Source: a virus
IMG/VR virus record: IMGVR_UViG_3300002092_000018
Location: 1-36,000 of that record
DNA: 36,000 bases
Reading direction: 5' to 3' (one strand)
A program made the translations under genes and the position numbers. The notes beneath the pieces are model-generated. The model did not search any database. It was not told where the DNA came from and saw only the letters and a list, made by a program, of their open reading frames with translations. Positions 2,960 to 24,741 of the stretch are shown one piece after another (the first letter of the stretch is position 1; each line of letters begins with the position of its first letter).

Positions 2960-3463
2960 ATGGATTGGAAAGAACTAGGCACAGCAGTTGCCAAAATCGG
3001 ATTGCCCCTGCTTGGGGCGGTTTTACCAATCCCCGGTGGCGCGGCTATCGGGTCCGCCCTCGCAGCCGCTATCGGCGCACCAAGCGGTCAGCCACAGGAC
3101 ATTCTTGCTGCTTTGACTTCAAGCGCGGAAGCGGTCCAAAAAGCCAAAGAGTTTGAAGCGCGGCATGAAGAAACCATGCTTCAGATGCAAGTCAACGCAG
3201 ACATTGCAGAGGCGCAAGAAGTTACTAAACGCCAGCAAGCGGACATGGCTTCTGATTCATGGCTTGCCAAGAACATCCGTCCGATGACGCTGATTGCAAT
3301 CCTTGTCGGCTATTTCGTATTCGCCATGATGTCAGCCTTTGACAAGCCAGCCGATCCCGAATACATCAAACTGCTTGGTCAATGGGGGATGCTAATCATG
3401 TCGTTTTATTTCGGCGGCAGGACACTTGAAAAAATTGTTGGCATGAGGGAACAAACCAAATGA
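2960..3463 (+). CDS. Holin, GTA-type 3-TM holin family-like
   Basis: The Gly/Ala-rich hydrophobic N-terminus is DWKELGTAVAKIGLPLLGAVLPIPGGAAIGSALAAAIG. A charged helical linker follows, then C-terminal TM segments (RPMTLIAILVGYFVFAMM, WGMLIMSFYFGG). This matches the architecture I recall for the holin-of-3TMs family. The stop overlaps the endolysin start (ATGA). Confidence 0.7.
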   Translation: MDWKELGTAVAKIGLPLLGAVLPIPGGAAIGSALAAAIGAPSGQPQDILAALTSSAEAVQKAKEFEARHEETMLQMQVNADIAEAQEVTKRQQADMASDSWLAKNIRPMTLIAILVGYFVFAMMSAFDKPADPEYIKLLGQWGMLIMSFYFGGRTLEKIVGMREQTK

Positions 3464-3972
3464 TCGACTTTGACAAATCGTTTGCGCGGCTCATCAATTC
3501 TGAGGGCGGCTTCAGCAACAATCCTGCGGACGATGGCAACTGGACCGGGGGGCGGCAAGGGCTGGGCGAACTCAAGGGAACAAAGTACGGAATTGCTGCG
3601 GCAAGTTATCCGTATGTCGACATCGAGAATCTGACGCTGGAAGCCGCCAAAGCAATTTACAAGCGTGACTTTTGGGACATCCTTGGGGATGCGGATGGGG
3701 CAATCAAATATCAATTGTTTGATGCGTCCGTAAATCATGGTCGACCAAACGCAATTCGGTTTCTGCAACGCGCTATCGGGGTTGCGGACGATGGTGACTT
3801 TGGACCGCATTCACTCGCCGCCTTGCAAGCAATGGAAAAGAACGATGTCTTGTTCCGGTTCCTTGCCTACAGGTTCAAGTTTTGGGCTGCGCTCAAAAAG
3901 TTCGATACTTTCGGGCGAGGATGGGTCAACCGGGGCGCAGATGACCTTTTGTATGCGTCAGAGGACAACTAA
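3460..3972 (+). CDS. Endolysin, glycoside hydrolase family 108 lysozyme with C-terminal peptidoglycan-binding repeat
   Basis: The N-terminal motif LINSEGGFSNNPADDGNWTGG...GTKYGI resembles the GH108 EGGY-type catalytic signature. The C-terminal VADDGDFGPHSLAAL resembles a PG_binding_3-type motif. Confidence 0.85.
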   Translation: MIDFDKSFARLINSEGGFSNNPADDGNWTGGRQGLGELKGTKYGIAAASYPYVDIENLTLEAAKAIYKRDFWDILGDADGAIKYQLFDASVNHGRPNAIRFLQRAIGVADDGDFGPHSLAALQAMEKNDVLFRFLAYRFKFWAALKKFDTFGRGWVNRGADDLLYASEDN

Positions 3973-6526: not shown

Positions 6527-7465
6527 TTACACCGCATCAGGGGTTGCAACAAACTCGTTGGAACGCCGCAAGTCATGCACAACTGCACCTGTTCCGCCCG
6601 TGTCGATCATTTGGGAAATTGCGATACGGTCTGTCATGGGAAGCGTCATCTTCGTTGCTTCGTTGACCTTGCGGAATGCGTTGATTTTTTCCTGCTTAAC
6701 ATCAGGCTTGAATTTTTCGCTGCCCATGATGCGATTGACCATGTTGACATAGGCAACGCACCATTCCGCCGCCGTGTCGTGATGAGAAAACACCGTGCCA
6801 TCTGGAAGCATAAGTTGATACGCAATACCCTCCGTATCGTCCTTGATGTCTGCCAGCGTTTGCGTGGTGAAGTCCTCTTTGTAATCCGCAACAGGCTCTT
6901 CACCGTAAACAGGATCAATCGCGGTAGGTTCCGCGACTCGCGTGATGGGCGTTATGTTTCCCATGTCGATTTCTTTACCCTTGCGCGGAGGATCAAACTC
7001 GGAAACCTCTTCAACCGAATACTGCCCCAACATACAAGCGGGATACACAGAACGAACGCCACGCGCAATGCACCGCGCCCGTAGCATATCCTCGGGGTAC
7101 TTCTCCCATCCGCTACCCGGACGCGCCAAACCCGCCTGACGCGCCATTTCGATTGTCCACTCAACGGTAAGAGTTCCGCCAGATTCGTGCGAGAACGTAC
7201 CGACACACTTTTTGGGGGTCATTTCACCCCATTGAACCTTGCCGCCCGATTGCTGGAAGCGCGACAGGATAGCTTGCGTCTTTAACGCAGGGCGACCTTG
7301 AATAACGTCATATTCCTGAACAACCGTAGCAATATGCTTTCCTTCGGCTTCAGCAACAAACATCAGCGCAAGGACTTGTTCACGGGTCTTGAATCCGTAA
7401 AAGCCGGACTTAACGATTGCGTCAGCCATAGACGCTTTATCTTGAAAAGGCACGAGATTGCTCAT
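6527..7465 (-). CDS. recT: RecT-family single-strand annealing protein with C-terminal extension
   Basis: Motifs include KSGFYGFKTREQVLALMFVAEAEG, IQGRPALKTQAILSRF and WEKYPEDMLRARCIARGVRSVYP. These resemble the RecT/annealase core. It is paired with a YqaJ-type exonuclease. RBS is AGAGGAAAAACC. Confidence 0.7.
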   Translation of the reverse strand: MSNLVPFQDKASMADAIVKSGFYGFKTREQVLALMFVAEAEGKHIATVVQEYDVIQGRPALKTQAILSRFQQSGGKVQWGEMTPKKCVGTFSHESGGTLTVEWTIEMARQAGLARPGSGWEKYPEDMLRARCIARGVRSVYPACMLGQYSVEEVSEFDPPRKGKEIDMGNITPITRVAEPTAIDPVYGEEPVADYKEDFTTQTLADIKDDTEGIAYQLMLPDGTVFSHHDTAAEWCVAYVNMVNRIMGSEKFKPDVKQEKINAFRKVNEATKMTLPMTDRIAISQMIDTGGTGAVVHDLRRSNEFVATPDAV

Positions 7466-7785
7466 GGTTTTTCCTCTTGGTCAGGTGTTGCCGTGTTGAA
7501 ATTCAAACTCTTTCCTACCCGGCAGAAAAAATGATAATTCCGTCTAAAGTACCGCTTGTCATTTTCATTGATCGAAAGGAACTGCCCCGGCTTTTTCATC
7601 TGAGCAATTAGATGCTCTCTGAAGCTGCCGGGGTCAATATCCAAAAGAATCAAATAACCGTCAGCGTGGTTAAAAAGAAAATTGACTGCTTCAAGTGAAC
7701 CATCCCTGCGAGAAGTGCAAGCCGCCTTTATTGCGGACACGATGACCGCAGACAAAAGATGATTGCAAGCCTCGGTTTGATTCAC
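7462..7785 (-). CDS. Hypothetical protein, 107 aa
   Basis: It has a GTG start with AAGG upstream. It fills the gap within the recombination operon, and its stop overlaps the recT start. Confidence 0.5.
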   Translation of the reverse strand: MNQTEACNHLLSAVIVSAIKAACTSRRDGSLEAVNFLFNHADGYLILLDIDPGSFREHLIAQMKKPGQFLSINENDKRYFRRNYHFFCRVGKSLNFNTATPDQEEKP

Positions 7786-7794
7786 GGCAGGGCC

Positions 7795-8121
7795 TTACGC
7801 CGCTTCTTTCTTGCTGCGAAAGCGTCCATTGCTGGCGCGTTCTTCGGCTTGCTGCTCCGTTTCCGGTTCAGCGGCAGCGGCTTCCGGTTCCGGTTCCTTG
7901 ACTTCGGCAGCGGGTTTGCCAGCGGCTTCCCATTGCTTGTAGGCATGAACGCTTGCGGAAGCGATACTTGCCGCCGCGCCGGACTTGTAGATGTTTTGGT
8001 CGCTGTCAATGAACGCCTGAACATCCGCCGAATTGTCGATCACGGATTGATGCGCGAGTGCTTCGGATTCGGTGAAAAAAACCTCACCGTCAGAAGTCTT
8101 GAATGCCTGTACGAGTTCCAT
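7795..8121 (-). CDS. Hypothetical protein, 108 aa, with a Glu/Pro/Ala-rich tail
   Basis: I prefer the start at MELVQAF (8121), which has RBS GAGGAA 7 nt upstream. The track start at 8136 overlaps the exonuclease stop. Confidence 0.55.
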   Translation of the reverse strand: MELVQAFKTSDGEVFFTESEALAHQSVIDNSADVQAFIDSDQNIYKSGAAASIASASVHAYKQWEAAGKPAAEVKEPEPEAAAAEPETEQQAEERASNGRFRSKKEAA

Positions 8122-8132
8122 CTTGAATTTCC

Positions 8133-9035
8133 TCACTTGATTAGGAAGCGTCTACTTCCGGGGGTTGAAATGATGAACTGCTTGTAAATGTCCGGCATGG
8201 ATTGCTTGAACAATTCCGCGCTGAACTTCTCACTTGCCTTGGAAGATTTCCAAGTGATAAGTGTAGAACCGTCAACGGACCGCAATTCGGAATTGCCGCC
8301 CATCATGTTTCGCAACTGAACCTCCAATTGCTCCGCCTCTTCTTCAGCCGCCTTGATGCGCGACTTCATTTGCTTGAGCATTGCAACGGCTTGCTCAACG
8401 CTTTGATTTGCCGTGATGACTCCCTCAGTCGATTGGGGGTAAAGCAACTTGGCTTGTTCGACTGTTTCTGCCGGGGGAGTTGTTCCAGCTTGAACGTGAC
8501 CCCAATAAGTTGCCATTGTCGAAATGAGTTCGTTGCGCTGCTCATCCGAAATGTCAAAAACGTGGTAGCAGAATTCCTGTCCGCCAAACAAGACCGCAAA
8601 GCAGACTTTCGGAATGTTGTGGACCGCCGATTCATGGACAAGCTGCGCCATGTCGGTTTCAGGAATGCGCCCGGTTTCAAAATCGTATTTGGACCTGATT
8701 GCCGCCGTGTAGTTTTTGGCTTCAACCAGCATATTTCCGCCGACTTCGATCCCATCAAAATGCGACTTGAGCCACGTTTCACGGGGATGGGTTAGCGCGT
8801 AGTCAGCGTCCTTGATTTCGATGCCCAAACGGTCCTGAACAAGCCCCAAAATGACAGGCTGCATGACATGACCCATGCGGACATTTTCACGGTCAGAAAT
8901 GTCCTCGGGAATCAGCTTGCCTTGCTTGATAAGGATTTGATCGACTGCCTTTCCTGCAACGGCTTGTCGACTGTCCCCGGACCACCATGCAGCATTGCGG
9001 ACCGCAGGGGCAAAATCAGCTTGATCGTTTGCCAT
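8133..9035 (-). CDS. YqaJ / lambda-Exo-type 5'-3' exonuclease (PD-(D/E)xK)
   Basis: Motifs are MGHVMQPVILGL and HFDGIEVGGNMLVEAKN (D...ExK catalytic motif). The size is 300 aa and it is paired with the RecT-like gene. Confidence 0.8.
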   Translation of the reverse strand: MANDQADFAPAVRNAAWWSGDSRQAVAGKAVDQILIKQGKLIPEDISDRENVRMGHVMQPVILGLVQDRLGIEIKDADYALTHPRETWLKSHFDGIEVGGNMLVEAKNYTAAIRSKYDFETGRIPETDMAQLVHESAVHNIPKVCFAVLFGGQEFCYHVFDISDEQRNELISTMATYWGHVQAGTTPPAETVEQAKLLYPQSTEGVITANQSVEQAVAMLKQMKSRIKAAEEEAEQLEVQLRNMMGGNSELRSVDGSTLITWKSSKASEKFSAELFKQSMPDIYKQFIISTPGSRRFLIK

Positions 9036-12958: not shown

Positions 12959-13045
12959 CTAGTTGGTTAAAACGATTGCAAACCATGCTGCGACAATAGC
13001 AACAATGGCAATGCACACTAAACCGGAAAGAATCTCGCCTTTCAT
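12959..13045 (-). CDS. Unlisted 28-codon single-TM micro-ORF (MKGEILSGLVCIAIVAIVAAWFAIVLTN)
   Basis: Its ATG overlaps the ardC-like stop (ATGA), with AAGGA 8 nt upstream. It exactly fills the spacer before the next gene. It falls below the length cutoff of the ORF track. Confidence 0.45.
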   Translation of the reverse strand: MKGEILSGLVCIAIVAIVAAWFAIVLTN

Positions 13046-13932
13046 GCTGCAATCCTTTCTCTTGCCGCATCCTGAACCTTGCAAGCATTGATGTAATCTG
13101 CGGCTTTCTGAGCAAGTGCTGCGGCTTTGAATATTGCCTTGCTATCTTCCCGCATTGCCTTTAGCCAGTTGGCGACATAACCGGCATGGCGCAATTCCCC
13201 TGCAATGCCGTAATCCTGACAAATGAATGCTGCGGTAAGTTCTGCTACTAACTCCTCAAAAGCATATTCGGGATTGCCGAATCTGCCTTTGCTTATGTCG
13301 CGGTCACAACGCGCCTTATCGCTGGTCCAATGTCCCAACTCGTGAAAGGCAGTTGCGTAGTAATGACAGGGGGCAGCAAAATCCTTTGGGAAAGGCAGTT
13401 GTATGATGTCACGGCTTGGCATGAAATAAGCGGAATCGCCACCGTGAAATATTTTCGCTCCTGTCGCAATGATGCGATTCTCTGCCGCCTGATTAGCGTC
13501 AAAGGGTTCCGGCATGAGTTCCGGCTCCGGCTGTTTGATCGTAATTCCGTCCACTTGCGCGACATTGAAAACATAGTAGGACTTCAGAACCGCATAGCCT
13601 TTTGCTTCGTTACCCTCTGCATCCGGCTGTCCCTTTGCGACCGGCTTAAAGAATACGATCTTGCTACCCTTTTCGCCTTTCTTGACAGTTGCGCCCAATC
13701 CCTGCCAATGCTTAAAGGTTCCCCATACAGGCGTTTCATACCCTCGCATCATGCCAACCATACCGAGCAATAAACGATTGATTCCCTGATAAGGCTTTTG
13801 GGTAACGATATTGCGATCAAGATTAGAGCCAATGGCATTACTGGCTTTCCAAGGTTTAATCCAAGGCATAGCCCCTGATTCAACTTGTTTGATGATGTCC
13901 GCAGTAATTTCAGCGTAGAGCGAATTCGACAT
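13042..13932 (-). CDS. ardC: ArdC-like antirestriction protein (N-terminal ssDNA-binding domain plus C-terminal HExxH metallopeptidase domain)
   Basis: The N-terminus reads MPWIKPWK...KPYQGINRLLL...WGTFKHWQGLGATVKKGEKGSKIVFF. The C-terminus reads FHELGHWTSD...YAFEELVAELTAAFIC. It is the first gene of the leftward arm. RBS is AGAGGGTTATCAACC. Confidence 0.85.
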   Translation of the reverse strand: MSNSLYAEITADIIKQVESGAMPWIKPWKASNAIGSNLDRNIVTQKPYQGINRLLLGMVGMMRGYETPVWGTFKHWQGLGATVKKGEKGSKIVFFKPVAKGQPDAEGNEAKGYAVLKSYYVFNVAQVDGITIKQPEPELMPEPFDANQAAENRIIATGAKIFHGGDSAYFMPSRDIIQLPFPKDFAAPCHYYATAFHELGHWTSDKARCDRDISKGRFGNPEYAFEELVAELTAAFICQDYGIAGELRHAGYVANWLKAMREDSKAIFKAAALAQKAADYINACKVQDAARERIAA

Positions 13933-18257: not shown

Positions 18258-19889
18258 ATGATTATCCCATCTACTGCGGTTGAAAGAGAACTGTTCTACC
18301 GAGAAATCATGCAGAAGTGCATGACATCTGCGGAGGACCGCAAGCGCGACTATGAAGTATTGAAGTCGTACTATCTCTTCGGGGCGGGACCCAATCAACC
18401 TCCTGCCTTGTTCAACAAGATCAATCCGCACTTGGATCAACTGACCAGCTTCCTTTACTCTGCCGAGTCAACCCGGTTCTCAATTTCGATTGGCGCGTCA
18501 GTCGAGCCGTTTGAACACCGCAAGTCACCCAAGCTGACATCCGCGCTCAACGATGAGTGGTGGAACTCCAATGCGGATCAGGTGTTCTCTCTCGCGCTCA
18601 CTTGGTCATTGGTATACAACACAAGTTTTATCAAGCTGGTTTACAACAAGGGCATCCACCCCTACATGATCGAACCGGGGTCGGTTGGCGTGTTGCGTGA
18701 GGACACTCCTTACACGGACCGACAAGAGGCTTTTTGCCATCGTTATTACATGACGCGCTCTGACCTTTTTGCGCGGCTTTACAGTCACCCCCGGCGCGAG
18801 TCGATTGTGAAGCAAATCAACTCTTCACCGCGCATGACCAGCGACAACAGCGGGGACGGTGTGGCGCGGATCATCATGTCCGCCACGAACCCCACGATAT
18901 ACGGCAACGTCAACATGGATTTGTTTGGCGAAAACCGATACCGCGCACAGGTCGCAGAGGACACGATTGAAATGCGTGAACTCTGGCTTTGGGACGATTC
19001 AATTCAGGACTACCAATGCGTGACGTTTGCTGACCCGGACGCAATCATCTATGACCGACCCGGCTCAAGCCTGTTTCTCAAAGGCGAATCGCCGTTTGTG
19101 CAAATCTGCCCGGACCCGCTTCCCAACTATTATTGGGGGCAATCCGAATGTCAGAAACTTGTGATGCTGCAAGAGGTCCGAAACAACCGCATGACGGAGA
19201 TTCAGGACTTGCTGTCGAAGCAAGTGAACCCGCCAAAAGCGTTTTCAGGATTCAGCGGCATAGCGGAAGAGAAATACTTTGCGATGAACCGCGCTGGTTC
19301 GATGATTGCAACCGATATGCCCAACGCAAAGGTCGATTCTCTCGCGCCTGAAATGCCCCCCGATATTTTTGAAGTGATCCACGAAATTGACGCAATGTTC
19401 ATGGAAGTGTCCGGCATCAACAATGTGCTGTCCGGGCGCGGTGAATCTGGCGTTCGTTCATCTGGTCACGCATCCCAACTCGCAAGGCTTGGTTCAAGCC
19501 GTGCAAAAAAACGTGCTCTCATTGTCGAAGATAGTCTGGAAAAAGTAGCAACACTCTATCTCAAATTGATGCAAGTCTACGACCCCACGCACTACACCGA
19601 CACCGAGGGTACGCCTTTCATTGCCAAGCAGTTCACCAATGACTTTGTGGTGAAGGTTGACGCGCACTCCAACTCCCCGATCTTTACGGAGGACACGAAG
19701 GAACTCGCGTTCAGCCTGTTCAAGGCGGAAGTCATAGACAAAGAATCTCTTCTTGATCTTGTCGAACCGCCCATGAAGCAACTGCTCAAGGACAGGCTCA
19801 AGACGCGCCAGCAGAAAGAAGCGGACCAACCCCCTGCCGCGCCCGAGAAAGAGGGCGGCAAGCCGCCGTTGAAGATTGCAAAGGGATAG
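18258..19889 (+). CDS. Portal protein
   Basis: It is 543 aa and sits downstream of terL. Its size and position are typical of podovirus portals, and it has a basic/acidic C-terminal tail. The call rests on synteny and general similarity, not a diagnostic motif. Confidence 0.75.
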   Translation: MIIPSTAVERELFYREIMQKCMTSAEDRKRDYEVLKSYYLFGAGPNQPPALFNKINPHLDQLTSFLYSAESTRFSISIGASVEPFEHRKSPKLTSALNDEWWNSNADQVFSLALTWSLVYNTSFIKLVYNKGIHPYMIEPGSVGVLREDTPYTDRQEAFCHRYYMTRSDLFARLYSHPRRESIVKQINSSPRMTSDNSGDGVARIIMSATNPTIYGNVNMDLFGENRYRAQVAEDTIEMRELWLWDDSIQDYQCVTFADPDAIIYDRPGSSLFLKGESPFVQICPDPLPNYYWGQSECQKLVMLQEVRNNRMTEIQDLLSKQVNPPKAFSGFSGIAEEKYFAMNRAGSMIATDMPNAKVDSLAPEMPPDIFEVIHEIDAMFMEVSGINNVLSGRGESGVRSSGHASQLARLGSSRAKKRALIVEDSLEKVATLYLKLMQVYDPTHYTDTEGTPFIAKQFTNDFVVKVDAHSNSPIFTEDTKELAFSLFKAEVIDKESLLDLVEPPMKQLLKDRLKTRQQKEADQPPAAPEKEGGKPPLKIAKG

Positions 19890-19891
19890 TC

Positions 19892-20050
19892 ATGGCATCG
19901 AACAAGACCGCACCAAAAGCAGATCAGCCGCGAGTGACAACCGAAAACCTAAAGCGCGGCGATGACCTTGGGAAGATTCAACGCGCAAACACGGTCAAAG
20001 CATCGACACGCGCCAGCAAAAGAAGTGCTGGACGTTTGGGAAGAAGCTGA
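19892..20050 (+). CDS. Unlisted small basic protein, 52 aa (MASNKTAPKADQPRVTTENLKRGDDLGKIQRANTVKASTRASKRSAGRLGRS)
   Basis: The ATG lies 3 nt after the portal stop, with AAGGGA 5 nt upstream. It falls below the length cutoff of the ORF track. Confidence 0.5.
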   Translation: MASNKTAPKADQPRVTTENLKRGDDLGKIQRANTVKASTRASKRSAGRLGRS

Positions 20051-20131
20051 TAAGATTGCAGTTCCTTAGTCAGGAAAAGGGTGTAGCTGCCTTCCCTTTC
20101 AATAGGTGGCTCGGCTTCAAGGAGTGTCCAC

Positions 20132-20173
20132 ATGGCACGCAAAGCTCGCAAGGGTCGCAAGTCGCGCAAGTAA
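20132..20173 (+). CDS. 13-codon polycationic micro-ORF MARKARKGRKSRK
   Basis: A consensus SD, AAGGAG, lies 7 nt upstream of the ATG. The coding part is four tandem 9-nt units, CGCAAR-NNN (20138-20173). Confidence 0.45.
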   Translation: MARKARKGRKSRK

Positions 20174-20185
20174 TCCGAAAGGATT
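20172..20185 (+). other. GNRA-tetraloop hairpin AATCC-GAAA-GGATT overlapping the micro-ORF stop codon
   Basis: It is a perfect 5-bp stem with a GAAA loop. Confidence 0.6.
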
Positions 20186-20213
20186 CTTGCGGATGACCCG
20201 CACAAGTCCCCTT

Positions 20214-20250
20214 TGAGGGGGGGTGGGAACAAAAACATAACCCCCCCTCA
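20214..20250 (+). other. Very stable 11-bp hairpin TGAGGGGGGGT / ACCCCCCCTCA with a 15-nt loop
   Basis: The inverted repeat is perfect and contains G7 and C7 homopolymers. No U-tract follows. An alternative CCCC/GGGG pairing (20208-20220) competes for the G-tract. Confidence 0.7.
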
Positions 20251-20260
20251 CCCAACACAC

Positions 20261-20288
20261 TTGATTTTTGATAGGAAAGGATTATTCT
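20261..20288 (+). promoter_or_regulatory. Candidate sigma70-type promoter for the head-morphogenesis genes
   Basis: TTGATT-16 nt-TATTCT lies about 25 nt upstream of ATG 20315. Confidence 0.4.
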
Positions 20289-20314
20289 GGCGGCAATCTC
20301 GATAGGGAAATGCT

Positions 20315-20860
20315 ATGCCAGCGCAAACCGATCCCATGCTTGCCCTACTCAAGGGGCAAAAGGATTCCGCCACTCCGGGCGGCGTTCCTCCCACTCCTGA
20401 CAATCCCGCATCTGGGATGTCGGAACCCGGCTCACCCCCAATGGCAGGACCCATGTCTACCCCTGAACCCAAGTTGGGTGACAGGGAGGCGGCTATGGCG
20501 AACCTCGGCATTGTTGCCGATCTGCTTGAGCAATCCCTTTCCGCATTCGGCAGCGAAACGCCTGAAGGACAAAAAGTCCTAGGCGCGATCCGCACGATTA
20601 GCGGAATGCTCGGACCGCGCAAAGGCAAGACCAACGAACTGCAACAGGCTGAGATTCTTCAGTTGATGCAATCCCTGCCCAAGGCTGGCGGCACTCCCCC
20701 GGAACTCAAGGGGATGCAGAATGCGCCACCCGTACCCGGTATGCCGCCTCCGGGCGGTATGCCACCTCCGGGCGCACCGCCAATGGGCGGCAAGCCTCCG
20801 GGCGCACCTCCCGGCATGATGCCCCCGCCACTCGGCGGCGGTATGCCTCCACCCATGTAA
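20315..20860 (+). CDS. Pro/Gly/Met-repeat protein, 181 aa (head-module protein of unknown role)
   Basis: RBS is AGGGAAA. The N-terminus is Pro-rich. A helical-looking core follows. The 45-aa C-terminal tail is PPVPGMPPPGGMPPPGAPPMGGKPPGAPPGMMPPPLGGGMPPPM, which includes an 18-nt tandem duplication. Confidence 0.65.
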   Translation: MPAQTDPMLALLKGQKDSATPGGVPPTPDNPASGMSEPGSPPMAGPMSTPEPKLGDREAAMANLGIVADLLEQSLSAFGSETPEGQKVLGAIRTISGMLGPRKGKTNELQQAEILQLMQSLPKAGGTPPELKGMQNAPPVPGMPPPGGMPPPGAPPMGGKPPGAPPGMMPPPLGGGMPPPM

Positions 20861-20872
20861 CAAGGAAAGAAA

Positions 20873-21058
20873 ATGGACCTCTGGAAACCTCGCGGTACTG
20901 CTTCGCTCCGCAACCCGACCTCCAACGAGCAAAAGCACGGGCAGATTTACAATCCCCCGCGCTTCGCCCAACTCGGCGGTTTGTCCGGCGCAAGCAAGGC
21001 AACCCACAAAAACGCCATGACGCTTTCGCGTCCCGGTGACACCAAGAAAATCATCTGA
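20873..21058 (+). CDS. Hypothetical basic protein, 61 aa
   Basis: RBS AAGGAAAG precedes the ATG. It is on the same strand between head genes. Confidence 0.5.
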   Translation: MDLWKPRGTASLRNPTSNEQKHGQIYNPPRFAQLGGLSGASKATHKNAMTLSRPGDTKKII

Positions 21059-21076: not shown

Positions 21077-21610
21077 ATGAGTAGCTTGGAAGATGTTTCG
21101 ATTCAACAGCGCGATCAACTCGCTTTGCTGTCCAAGAATCTTTCGGATGATCCGTCTACCCGGAAAGACTTTTTGAGGCTGGCAAAGCGGATCAATCCTG
21201 ATCTTGTCGTGCCTGAACTTGAGATCGAAGATCGGACCAACAAGGTCCTTGAAACGATCCAGAAGGAAAACGAGGAACTACGCAACTCGCTCAAGGACCG
21301 CGAACGCCGCGAGGACTTGGACAAGAAGCGGCAGAGCCTTATCAAGAACGGGCTGGCAAGCAACGATGAAGATGTTGCCGCCATCGAAAAGGTCATGCTC
21401 GAAAAGCATATCCCCGACCATGAAACCGGGGCGCAGTACTGGAACTGGATGAAGCAAGCCGCAGTCCCAACGCCAACAGGCTACAACCCGAGTGCTATCG
21501 CCAAGTTCGACTTGTCGAAGTACATGAAGAATCCCACGATGGGCGCACGGGAAGAAGCGTCAAAGGCTTTGCAGGATTTGCGGTCGATGCGGAGTCCAAT
21601 TCGTATTTGA
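21077..21610 (+). CDS. Scaffolding protein (putative)
   Basis: It is 177 aa and highly charged (Glu/Lys/Arg/Asp). It sits immediately upstream of the capsid gene. RBS is AAGGGGA. Confidence 0.6.
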   Translation: MSSLEDVSIQQRDQLALLSKNLSDDPSTRKDFLRLAKRINPDLVVPELEIEDRTNKVLETIQKENEELRNSLKDRERREDLDKKRQSLIKNGLASNDEDVAAIEKVMLEKHIPDHETGAQYWNWMKQAAVPTPTGYNPSAIAKFDLSKYMKNPTMGAREEASKALQDLRSMRSPIRI

Positions 21611-21671: not shown

Positions 21672-22682
21672 ATGCCAATAGGCGGCGGGATTTTACCGGC
21701 ATCGAATACGAGTCAGTACACCGAACTGACTTACATCACTCGCCGGGCTTTCATTCCCAAGCTGGTTGTCCAGCTTTACAACTCAACGCCTCTCATGGCG
21801 GCTCTGATTGCCAACAGTCAGTCAGCCTCCGGCGGCGTGAGTCAAGTCACCGTGCCTGTGCAAGGTGCTGCATTCGTGAACGCGCAATGGTCGGATTACT
21901 CCGGTTCGTTTGCTGCGCCCACGGTCCAGCAAGGCGCATTCAACGCTGAATTCAACCTCAAGTTGATGATTGCCCCTGTGCCGTTCCTCGGCATGGAAGG
22001 AATCGTGCAGCAAGACTATGCGGTCATTCCGCTGATCGAAGCGCGGATGAATGACGCGACAAACGTGATGATGGATGCGATGGCAACTGCCCTCTATTCC
22101 AACTACACGAACACGCAGCAATTCATCGGGCTTCCCGGCGCAATTGACGATGGCACAAACCTTGCCACCTACGGCAACATCAGCCGAACCAGCTACGCAT
22201 GGTGGAAGTCCAAGGTGTACGCTGCGGGGAACGTCAACCCCACGCGACAGAACATCCTGCAATACATCAGCGGCACGGTGAAGAACGGCGCGGAAGTCCC
22301 GACTTTCGGCGTGTGTGGATTTGGCACATGGACCCTGCTTGCTCAAGACTACGTTGGTCAAGAGCAATATGTCATCACTCCCGGTCACGGGTTCGATGGT
22401 GACAGCAACGGTCCCTCCGCAGCTTTCCGCGCCCTCATGGTCGCTGGCGTTCCAGTCTACCCCGATCCGTACTGTCCTGAAGGTACGGTGTACTTCATCA
22501 ACAGCAACTATCTCTCGCTGTACATTCACGAACAAGGTTCGTTTGTGTTCACCGGGTTTGAGTCCACGCTTCCCAACTGGCAAATCGGTTATGTGGGCGC
22601 GGTCTTGATGATTGCTGAACTGGTGAGTACCAAGCCCAAGTCGATGACTCGGGTTTCGGGCTACAACTCCATTTCGCTGTAA
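21672..22682 (+). CDS. Major capsid protein (HK97-fold type, inferred)
   Basis: It is 336 aa with a consensus SD, AAGGAG. It follows the scaffold-like gene, and its size and composition are typical of podovirus coat proteins. Confidence 0.8.
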   Translation: MPIGGGILPASNTSQYTELTYITRRAFIPKLVVQLYNSTPLMAALIANSQSASGGVSQVTVPVQGAAFVNAQWSDYSGSFAAPTVQQGAFNAEFNLKLMIAPVPFLGMEGIVQQDYAVIPLIEARMNDATNVMMDAMATALYSNYTNTQQFIGLPGAIDDGTNLATYGNISRTSYAWWKSKVYAAGNVNPTRQNILQYISGTVKNGAEVPTFGVCGFGTWTLLAQDYVGQEQYVITPGHGFDGDSNGPSAAFRALMVAGVPVYPDPYCPEGTVYFINSNYLSLYIHEQGSFVFTGFESTLPNWQIGYVGAVLMIAELVSTKPKSMTRVSGYNSISL

Positions 22683-23871: not shown

Positions 23872-24741
23872 ATGTCGCAAAACTTGTCCGGTTACATTAC
23901 GGAAGTCCGGCGTTTGCTGCATGATGCTACGGGAGTTTTTTATTCCGACTCGCAGCTAACCGACTACATCAATTCCGCACGGGATCGAACCGTGCGCGAC
24001 ACGGGTTGTCTGCGGACGATCCAAGTATCAAACACTCCTGCACCTGTAGCAAACCCGGTCAACGGGGTAACGGCAACCGCGCCTGTGCCGTGGACAGCAA
24101 GCACGGCATTCTCTCTGGATGCCTTTGTTTTTTCCAACATTTTCGTTTATCAAGTCACGCAAGCCGGGACCACGGATGCGACTGCGCCAGCGTACCCAAG
24201 CGGCACAAGCAACTATCCTCCCACGGCGCAATTCCTGAATGGAACGTGCGGACTAACGTATGTTGGAAACTGTGAGCAGATTCCCTATTCGACCCTGCCC
24301 AATGCGGCAAAAACGATTGACATCCTGAACGTCAATTTGTATTGGGGAAATACGCGAGTGCCGCTGGACTACTTGCCGTGGTCCGACTTCAATGCGCGGC
24401 TTCGCTTCTGGCAAAACTACATTGGTCGACCTGTCTGCTTTTCGATTTACGGTCAGAACACGATCTACATTGCTCCCGTGCCGGATCAGGCGTATCAAAT
24501 CGAATTGGACACGGTGATTCAACCGGACGCTCTCTTGTTGTCCGCGCCGACAGTTGCGGATTCGATTGCGGACCCGTTTACCTCTGCTCCCAAATACTAT
24601 GCCGCGCACTTGGCGAAGTTTTACGAGCAGTCGTTTGGTGAGGCTGAAATCTTCAAGCAAGAATATTTGAAGCAGATCACGCAAGTATTGAATTCTGTGT
24701 ACACGCGCCGCATTCCGTCCGTCTACAGCAGTCCCTATTAA
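23872..24741 (+). CDS. Head-tail adaptor (T7 gp11 / tail tubular protein A-like, putative)
   Basis: It is 289 aa and lies directly before the nozzle-like gene. The N-terminal helix ITEVRRLLHD...SDSQLTDYINSARDRTV is typical of connector/adaptor proteins. Confidence 0.5.
   Translation: MSQNLSGYITEVRRLLHDATGVFYSDSQLTDYINSARDRTVRDTGCLRTIQVSNTPAPVANPVNGVTATAPVPWTASTAFSLDAFVFSNIFVYQVTQAGTTDATAPAYPSGTSNYPPTAQFLNGTCGLTYVGNCEQIPYSTLPNAAKTIDILNVNLYWGNTRVPLDYLPWSDFNARLRFWQNYIGRPVCFSIYGQNTIYIAPVPDQAYQIELDTVIQPDALLLSAPTVADSIADPFTSAPKYYAAHLAKFYEQSFGEAEIFKQEYLKQITQVLNSVYTRRIPSVYSSPY

Follow-up and report, generated by a model that had tools for sequence, protein, structure and literature searches.

The subject of this study is a very short gene in the head region of a freshwater virus, found within the window, that is, the whole 36,000-nt stretch analysed (positions 1 to 36,000 of IMG/VR virus record IMGVR_UViG_3300002092_000018). 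A micro open reading frame (micro-ORF) on the plus strand, in the gap that separates an SU10-type portal-domain gene (18258-19889, PF23899) from the scaffold and capsid (head) genes, encodes the polycationic peptide MARKARKGRKSRK (20132-20173, net charge of about +8, stop codon TAA at 20171-20173). This micro-ORF is a bona fide conserved gene that was previously unannotated. It was pointed out in an original prediction made from the window alone, and every sequence feature listed there was recovered in place when we read the window sequence directly. A Shine-Dalgarno (SD) sequence, AAGGAG (20119-20124), is separated by a 7-nt spacer from the ATG at 20132, and the coding DNA is exactly four copies of CGC AAR NNN, a pattern that occurs once in the window against 0.00 expected from 100 shuffles and to which Tandem Repeats Finder assigns a period of 9 and 4.1 copies; start signal, reading frame and repeat are thus all as predicted. 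The gap opens with a 52-amino-acid basic ORF (orf52, 19892-20050), also predicted, that starts 2 nt after the portal stop. On the same strand follow a hairpin, Ha (20062-20076), an H-type RNA pseudoknot, PK1 (20078-20111), the micro-ORF with its SD, two further hairpins, H1 (20172-20185) and H2 (20186-20206), a second H-type pseudoknot, PK2 (20207-20250), and a sigma-70-like promoter for the downstream head genes (20261-20288). The next long ORF is a 181-amino-acid Pro/Gly/Met-rich gene (20315-20860), the usual downstream neighbour of the micro-ORF cluster, and the major capsid protein is encoded at 21672-22682 (phrog_9953).

To obtain relatives, we used a portal-based scan of IMG/VR, which returned at least 552, and examined the best 80, with portals 68-92% identical; 83 loci were compared in all, of which 80 had enough DNA after the portal gene to be informative. 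A scan of IMG/VR with the DNA pattern contributed at least 114 new loci. All 80 informative relatives carry one to three tandem polybasic micro-ORFs, which places the feature far beyond chance, and each of the 138 micro-ORFs in the SD-filtered set has GGAG or AGGAG 6-9 nt from its start codon. The Nei-Gojobori ratio of non-synonymous to synonymous differences (pN/pS) in frame is 0.27-0.39 for class A micro-ORFs, to which that of the window belongs, and 0.41 for class B, compared with 1.7-4.3 in both shifted frames. Variation affects 12 of 12 third codon positions and 5 of 12 first and second positions, arginine (CGC, CGT, AGA and CGG) and serine (TCN and AGY) each draw on two codon families, and the stop is TAA in 84 of the 85 distinct micro-ORF DNAs. 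The only phage relatives in GenBank are two metagenomic genomes from Manatee Spring, about 68% identical in nucleotides; in each the ORF is retained and differs synonymously (MARAKRKGRKARK and MARKARKTRKGRK), and each has a second polybasic micro-ORF upstream. Free synonymous change with a retained peptide, in relatives that all carry the ORF, marks it as coding and not incidental. Because the repeat nucleotides vary synonymously while the peptide is kept, the 9-nt periodicity of the DNA reads as the footprint of the peptide, a by-product of (R-K-x)n coding and not a DNA site. No antisense frame over the region is consistently open across the relatives, so the minus-strand hypothetical proteins annotated over the micro-ORF and pseudoknots in MW202753 and MW202825 (L001, 4740-5038, and L002, 4665-4925) are probably artefacts that hide plus-strand micro-genes.

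The 138 micro-ORFs fall into three classes according to their place in the cluster: class A (n = 71; M(A)RK[AS]RKGRK[ASG]RK) is last, class B (n = 59; MRKSHKKSRKSRR or MYKKMKRGRKTRR) lies upstream and class C (n = 8; MARKSKKGRKSCK) comes first. Paralogous tandem copies are common. Across 194 loci we found 123 distinct peptides of 10-18 amino acids (mostly 12-14), the products being 12-13 residues long in the lineage of the window and 13-18 in a distant lineage. They consist of 31.6% arginine, 31.0% lysine (together about 63%), 8.9% glycine, 6.7% serine and 5.3% alanine, with virtually no acidic or aliphatic residues and no Phe to speak of; Gly, Ser, Ala and Thr act as spacers between Arg and Lys. 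The C-terminal residue is K or R in all 123, at the end of a core of the form [K/R][K/R]-[G/S]-R-K-x-R-[K/R]-COOH. Arginine at position -5 and lysine at position -4 are both present in 44 of 44 class A peptides and in 77 and 78, respectively, of 79 class B peptides, where the class A copies in L083-L196 were fetched by a pattern imposing KGRKxRK-TAA and so have the motif partly by construction, while class B copies and all of L001-L082 are unbiased by the search pattern.

Upstream of the micro-ORF, the stem of Ha (TTCCT-TAGTC-AGGAA) changes between relatives with pairing kept (TTTCC/GGGAG, ATACC/GGTAT, TTCCC/GGGA), and in relatives with an upstream class B micro-ORF this hairpin stands directly 3' of the class B stop codon. 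PK1, 8 nt upstream of the micro-ORF SD, combines stem S1 (20078-81/20094-97, AGGG/CCCT), stem S2 (20085-92/20104-11, AGCTGCCT/AGGTGGCT) and loop L3 (20098-20103). Among 101 non-redundant sequences, 91.4% of its cells are paired, compared with at most 64% in slid controls, and double changes number 123 against 25.4 +/- 4.0 in shuffles, none of the 500 shuffles reaching the observed count; the centre of S2 is irregular in some subclades. The first pair of S2 (20085/20111) is A-U in the window and in its closest relatives, L003 (portal 92% identical) and L136, and G-C in most relatives, which reads as a compensatory double change in the window itself. Conserved loop sequences are TGTGGCTGCCTT in PK1 and GGGAA..AAATA in PK2.

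Downstream, H1 (AATCC-GAAA-GGATT; 20168-20188 if extended by AAG/CTT) encloses the stop codon, as the prediction had it, and a hairpin beginning at the last sense codon or the stop is present in 64 of 96 non-redundant relatives. The mean folding free energy is -14.6 kcal/mol against -7.5 +/- 3.2 kcal/mol in shuffles. On the plus strand its loop is a GNRA tetraloop in 38 and UUCG in 4 of the 96 (42/96), with no such tetraloop on the minus strand; other loops, many of 5-6 nt, account for 54 of the 96, and L003 has UUCG. The stems are entirely different between subclades, and H1 has the character of a stability hairpin. H2 (CTTGCGG-ATGAC-CCGCA(C)AAG) takes the form YTTCGG..TGACCGAA in most relatives, with TGACC conserved in the loop and 3' arm.

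The perfect 11-bp G7/C7 stem TGAGGGGGGGT/ACCCCCCCTCA of the prediction is present at 20214-20224/20240-20250 and forms S2 of PK2, with an A-rich L3 at 20229-20239, while S1 pairs TCCC (20207-20210) with GGGA (20225-20228) just 3' of the G-arm. An alternative pairing of the upstream C-run with the G-tract, which had been suggested, is possible on paper, but the relatives instead conserve TCCC/GGGA, which gives a pseudoknot and not an alternative hairpin. Both stems covary. The arms of S2 change to GGGGGAGG/CCTCCCCC, GGGGCAG/CTGCCCC and TGGCGGTTG/TAACCGCCA, and S1 occurs as 26 distinct helices, including TCCT/AGGA, ATTCC/GGAAT, ATCAT/ATGAT, TGTC/GACA and CCGCT/GGCGG; true S1 partners form 4.10 bp on average, compared with 3.24 +/- 0.09 for permuted partners (maximum 3.59 in 1000). 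The 3' region is poorly registered in a sequence-only alignment, where the signal is weaker (78.8% paired versus at most 65% when slid), and anchor-based parsing was used instead. Taken alone, the S2 stem has a mean of 7.51 bp on the plus strand and 7.43 on the minus strand, with 50 and 61 G.U pairs. The compensatory changes in relatives, together with H1 tetraloops confined to the plus strand, identify the predicted hairpins as genuine RNA-level structures. At gathering thresholds, Rfam 15 matched nothing in the whole window, and a search of 19700-20500 at E-values up to 10 gave nothing between 20050 and 20315; the three far-below-threshold chance matches in 19700-20500 lie inside the downstream gene (two) and across the portal/orf52 junction (19820-19913). 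We likewise found no description of this gene in the literature on polycationic or protamine-like peptides in tailed phages. This agrees with the original remark that no described system has such a layout, and both pseudoknots and the gene family appear to be undescribed.

The promoter-like element, TTGATT (20261-20266) and TATTCT (20283-20288) with a 16-nt spacer, is present as claimed. It scored below the threshold of a generic promoter scan, the combination of hairpin and promoter occurs only once in the window, and TTGACA follows PK2 at a distance of 1-9 nt in nearly all relatives. A terminator scan listed no intrinsic terminator at 20214-20260: the stem is followed in the window by CCCAACACAC, with no U run, and S2 in most relatives by ACTTGACA, which is the promoter -35 element, with TTTT only in L002. 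The full AAGGAG is found at 4 of 21 gene starts inspected in the window, those of the micro-ORF, the major capsid gene, p117 and p503, and the portal, terminase and Pro/Gly/Met-rich genes have weak SDs. Codon choice is restricted as well, with CGT and CGC making up 87% of arginine codons in micro-ORFs versus 57% in long ORFs, and GGT 80% versus 43% of glycine codons. With the tandem copies and stable flanks, the SD and codon choice give the locus what looks like the design of a cassette for making much peptide late in infection.

The same kind of head module surrounds the micro-ORF in 112 of the 114 pattern-selected loci. Six of these form a far sister lineage (L109, L120, L134, L145, L179, L196), with portals 28-30% and capsids 33-42% identical, in which the [G/S]-R-K-x-R-[K/R] core recurs in syntenic position. 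In five of the six, and in L204, a contig of the same lineage from a metagenome-assembled genome (MAG), the portal gene is divergently oriented and the head operon starts, behind a TTGACA-N16-18-TAnnnT promoter and a GGAG SD, with a single micro-ORF as its first cistron (MRATRHKGRKGRK and MIATFERRHKGRKGRK are examples). A strong GC hairpin comes next, followed by the Pro/Gly/Met-rich gene's homologue. The equivalent promoter thus lies after the micro-ORF in the window's lineage and before it in the distant one. L134 differs: its portal is co-oriented, we identified no promoter, and 6 nt without a hairpin separate the micro-ORF stop from the next gene. In L109, L120, L145, L179, L196 and L204 the 5' leader is apparently a hairpin whose loop could pair downstream, sometimes with the SD. 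Intermediate lineages, at 50% portal identity, have two to three copies directly after the portal gene. Synteny across the sister and intermediate lineages indicates that the gene travels with the head module, and by this context it belongs to the head-morphogenesis module of a large uncultured freshwater phage clade of the SU10-portal type. All sources are fresh water: Manatee Spring and lakes at Umea, Kiruna and Deming. A stricter pattern matched 7 contigs in 185,579 prokaryotic genomes, among which no isolate genome or prophage had it; six of the seven are phage contigs binned into unrelated freshwater MAGs (a betaproteobacterium (two), Legionella, Saccharibacteria, Opitutaceae and Terrimicrobiaceae). 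The best cultured capsid matches, at 23-27% identity, are Myxococcus phages Mx8 and Mx9, Stenotrophomonas phage BUCT555 and a TM7 phage, and in the four distant records scanned (Mx8, BUCT555, the TM7 phage and metagenomic MW202803) no polybasic micro-ORF was found in the head module.

With the gene, the conservation of its peptide and RNA structures, its synteny and its expression signals established, we infer, tentatively and with rather less than even confidence, that the peptide is an abundant late nucleic-acid-binding polycation for head filling or DNA charge neutralisation. A packaged DNA-neutralising peptide was one option of the original prediction, and it appears to be the best-fitting function; we favour it because it accords with the charge of the peptide, the place of the gene within the head module, the apparent expression design and the fact that every source is fresh water. 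Synthesis would be late and of high output, from a capsid-grade SD, one to three tandem copies and restricted codons, and the RNA frame (PK1 on the 5' side; H1, H2 and PK2 on the 3' side) would protect the short mRNA segment from nucleases. Stoichiometric amounts of peptide would be needed while heads fill. On the phage DNA it would act as a non-diffusible multivalent counter-ion for the genome of about 35 kb, easing packaging and stabilising densely packed DNA in low-salt fresh water, and PK1, which lies shortly before the SD, could plausibly serve for autogenous translational control by excess free peptide.

Intercistronic stabilising hairpins set differential expression in operons of the puf, pap and malEFG type. 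The locus resembles these in having stable hairpins and pseudoknots directly after a small, putatively highly needed cistron and ahead of distal genes, but its 3' element is a tetraloop hairpin, a second hairpin and a pseudoknot, followed by a fresh promoter. PK1 resembles the leaders of T4 gene 32 and of ribosomal-protein operons as an H-type pseudoknot a few tens of nucleotides upstream of the start of a putatively nucleic-acid-binding product; it differs in sharing no sequence similarity and having no Rfam match, and binding of the peptide to its own leader is a candidate mechanism only.

As to the product, very small Arg/Lys-rich proteins encoded among morphogenesis genes are known from the Microviridae, in which J of phiX174 and gokushovirus VP8 (pI of about 13) are needed for DNA packaging, enter the capsid together with the DNA and are retained there with the genome, a conserved hydrophobic/aromatic C-terminus being anchored in the capsid protein (PMC11281519). 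Those proteins have 24-40 amino acids and accompany single-stranded DNA into T=1 capsids without a terminase, whereas the micro-ORF peptides have 10-18, end in R-K or R-R without a hydrophobic anchor and belong, often as tandem paralogues, to terminase-packaging tailed phages with double-stranded DNA (dsDNA); the likeness is one of composition, in peptides too short for homology testing. Eukaryotic dsDNA viruses have protamine-like core proteins (adenovirus mu and VII, baculovirus P6.9, ascovirus P64), which are also polycationic. They are packaged along with the dsDNA, which they condense, and they adjust the pressure inside the capsid (PMC6755088, PMC6163548), and adenovirus protein VII both condenses DNA and lowers that pressure (PMC6755088). 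Unlike the micro-ORF peptide, for which packaging is what we infer, the protamine-like proteins are larger or protease-cut from precursors and occur in non-tailed eukaryotic viruses; the peptide is translated directly from its own cistron of 12-13 codons. These two groups are the closest known kinds, and we place the peptide in neither, as it lacks some of their defining features. It is conceivable, if rather doubtful, that a whole clade of tailed dsDNA phages supplies its own co-packaged counter-ions of 12-14 amino acids, made in capsid-like amounts from a nuclease-protected mini-mRNA, with synthesis tuned as surplus peptide binds the flanking pseudoknots, and maybe as an adaptation to fresh water of low ionic strength; this would go against the textbook view of naked DNA and small ions.

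Several points weigh against a packaged counter-ion. The general view is that tailed phages pack naked DNA together with small ions, and the peptides have no hydrophobic anchor of the kind found at the C-terminus of J and VP8. No cultured relative of the portal was found. The lineage of the window has no evident promoter directly upstream of the micro-ORF, so high expression there would depend solely on the SD and RNA stability, and the codon restriction could reflect constraints of RNA structure instead. The strict G/S-R-K-x-R-K/R core exceeds what a bulk counter-ion needs and hints at a specific partner, be it RNA, the portal, the terminase or the capsid.

This last point leads to an alternative that we consider unlikely, in which an RNA-binding peptide of the arginine-rich-motif type acts on the adjacent PK1, PK2 or hairpins at the portal/head operon junction and controls processing, stability, translation or termination, as a minimal pair of the N/boxB, Tat/TAR or ribosomal-protein kind. 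Specific recognition is suggested by the conserved G/S-R-K-x-R-K core, the ORF is flanked by two covarying pseudoknots whose loops are conserved, and PK1 lies immediately upstream of the SD as in the T4 gene 32 and ribosomal-protein leaders. The proposed partner in the original prediction was the GNRA hairpin, by analogy with lambda N and boxB, and here the analogy fails. As there, a basic peptide is encoded beside a short hairpin, with a GNRA loop in the window, but the loop fold of boxB is essential and conserved, whereas the loop of H1 is freely exchanged (GNRA in only 38 of 96 relatives, UUCG in L003, hexaloops elsewhere) and the hairpin is sometimes absent or displaced, identical peptides occurring with unrelated H1 stems or with none; H1 is not a specific partner. 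Lambda N has 107 amino acids, and its C-terminal parts contact NusA and RNA polymerase; a peptide of 13 is too short to bridge to RNA polymerase or Nus factors. As for the pseudoknots, class B and C copies have no PK1 upstream, and the distant ORF of L134 has no hairpin after it, the next gene following directly. Tandem copies with a capsid-grade SD suggest a bulk need and not a regulator.

A late polycation that is directed at the host, acting on the cell and not in the virion, is in our estimate quite improbable. Such a peptide might help in lysis in the manner of a disruptin or spanin, by driving divalent cations off the outer membrane; it might also serve to mask debris, or to compact or inhibit the host nucleoid or ribosomes. 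Extreme positive charge and small size would suit it, cationic phage lysis peptides such as phiKT gp28 exist, and the host is likely Gram-negative, given the GH108 endolysin with its PG_binding_3 domain and the two phage contigs in betaproteobacterial MAGs. The micro-ORF is, however, never linked to lysis genes (2960-3972 in the window) and always stays in the head module, even where the portal gene is inverted, and the peptides have neither a signal sequence nor amphipathic or hydrophobic residues.

Still less probable is a cis-acting leader or upstream ORF whose translation alone matters, by opening H1, shielding the RNA from Rho or choosing between folds, with the peptide as a by-product. 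The ORF does lie in a spacer of about 260 nt that is highly structured and otherwise untranslated, and in 64 of 96 relatives, where H1 contains the stop, termination requires the ribosome to melt this hairpin. Against this stand strong purifying selection on the amino acids with free synonymous change, a peptide motif kept across lineages that differ in downstream structures and promoter position, and one to three paralogous copies with an SD each. The predicted choice between exclusive hairpins, as in trp- or his-type attenuation, finds no basis in the folds, as the C-run and G-tract form a compatible pseudoknot (S1, which has 26 covarying variants, is compatible with S2), most relatives have no U-tract after PK2 and a dedicated promoter follows.

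A DNA-level element, in which the CGCAAR repeats and the G7/C7 dyad are protein-binding sites in dsDNA (iteron-like repeats, or an operator at which an activator binds ahead of the -35 element) and the ORF is incidental, is hardly tenable. In its favour, the 9-bp periodicity is real, the dyad occupies about -40 to -75 relative to the promoter with an A-rich loop resembling an UP element, and the S2 stem alone shows no strand asymmetry. Against it, relatives keep the amino acids but not the nucleotides of the repeat (CGC/CGT/AGA, AAA/AAG), with variation at every third codon position. The arms of the dyad are replaced entirely yet remain complementary, unlike an operator read by a conserved protein; S1 includes U.G pairs (TCCTG/CGGGA, GTTCC/GGAAT), which on the opposite strand would turn into C.A mismatches; and the H1 tetraloops are specific to the plus strand. 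The array reading of the ORF, also raised in the prediction, is effectively refuted by the pattern of synonymous substitution.

Were the favoured reading true and the peptides packaged with the DNA, the accepted view of how tailed-phage genomes are neutralised and pressurised would need revising, and there would be a simple link between the environment (ionic strength) and virion design. The micro-ORFs would rank among the smallest conserved protein-coding genes in phages. They fall into an annotation blind spot, below the length cut-off of gene callers, and trypsin-based virion proteomics would destroy the peptide; the gene is carried by over 500 contigs of a freshwater phage clade that is abundant and uncultured, so the omission is systematic. 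Whatever the role of the peptide, the locus provides two RNA pseudoknot motifs that are new and covary well, and it is a compact natural cassette for high expression of a micropeptide.

The neighbouring genes are themselves conserved. An ORF with the N-terminal motif PKADQPRVTT of orf52, which looks invariant, directly follows the portal gene in 72 of the 83 loci (53 distinct sequences), and tblastn also found orf52 in many pattern-selected loci. In relatives it has 51-54 amino acids, a net charge of +9 and a basic G/R/S-rich tail, with no Pfam or PHROG family match. This tail resembles the micro-ORF peptides, and orf52 might be an 'anchored' version of them. The 181-amino-acid Pro/Gly/Met-rich protein has 753 homologous clusters, all unnamed, and its counterpart that follows the micro-ORF in the distant lineage is 24-32% identical. 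AlphaFold2 gives it a confident two-helix core (about residues 54-99) with low confidence elsewhere (mean predicted local distance difference test score of 60), so the remainder is probably disordered; the predicted core is scaffold-like in style. Between this gene and a coiled-coil scaffold-like gene (21077-21610) lies a conserved basic ORF of 61 amino acids (20873-21058, net charge +7), 57% identical to its MW202753 counterpart.

Elsewhere in the window, the early region encodes an anti-restriction-type protein with an ArdC-like N-terminal domain and a zincin-like metallopeptidase domain (13042-13932, minus strand; PF08401, E 5.9e-35; PF18818, E 4.6e-45), and 6527-9035 on the minus strand has weak matches to RecT-like and YqaJ-like recombination genes. 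The lysis genes (2960-3972, plus strand), a GH108 endolysin with a PG_binding_3 domain beside a weak match to a holin-like protein with three transmembrane segments, suggest a Gram-negative host. A likeness of the micro-ORF product to an actinobacterial ribosomal bL37-like peptide was considered and dropped, as it was driven by composition and the host indicated by these lysis genes is Gram-negative. At 23872-24741 (plus strand) the window encodes an SU10-type adaptor protein, which, together with the SU10-type portal, suggests a podovirus-like connector.

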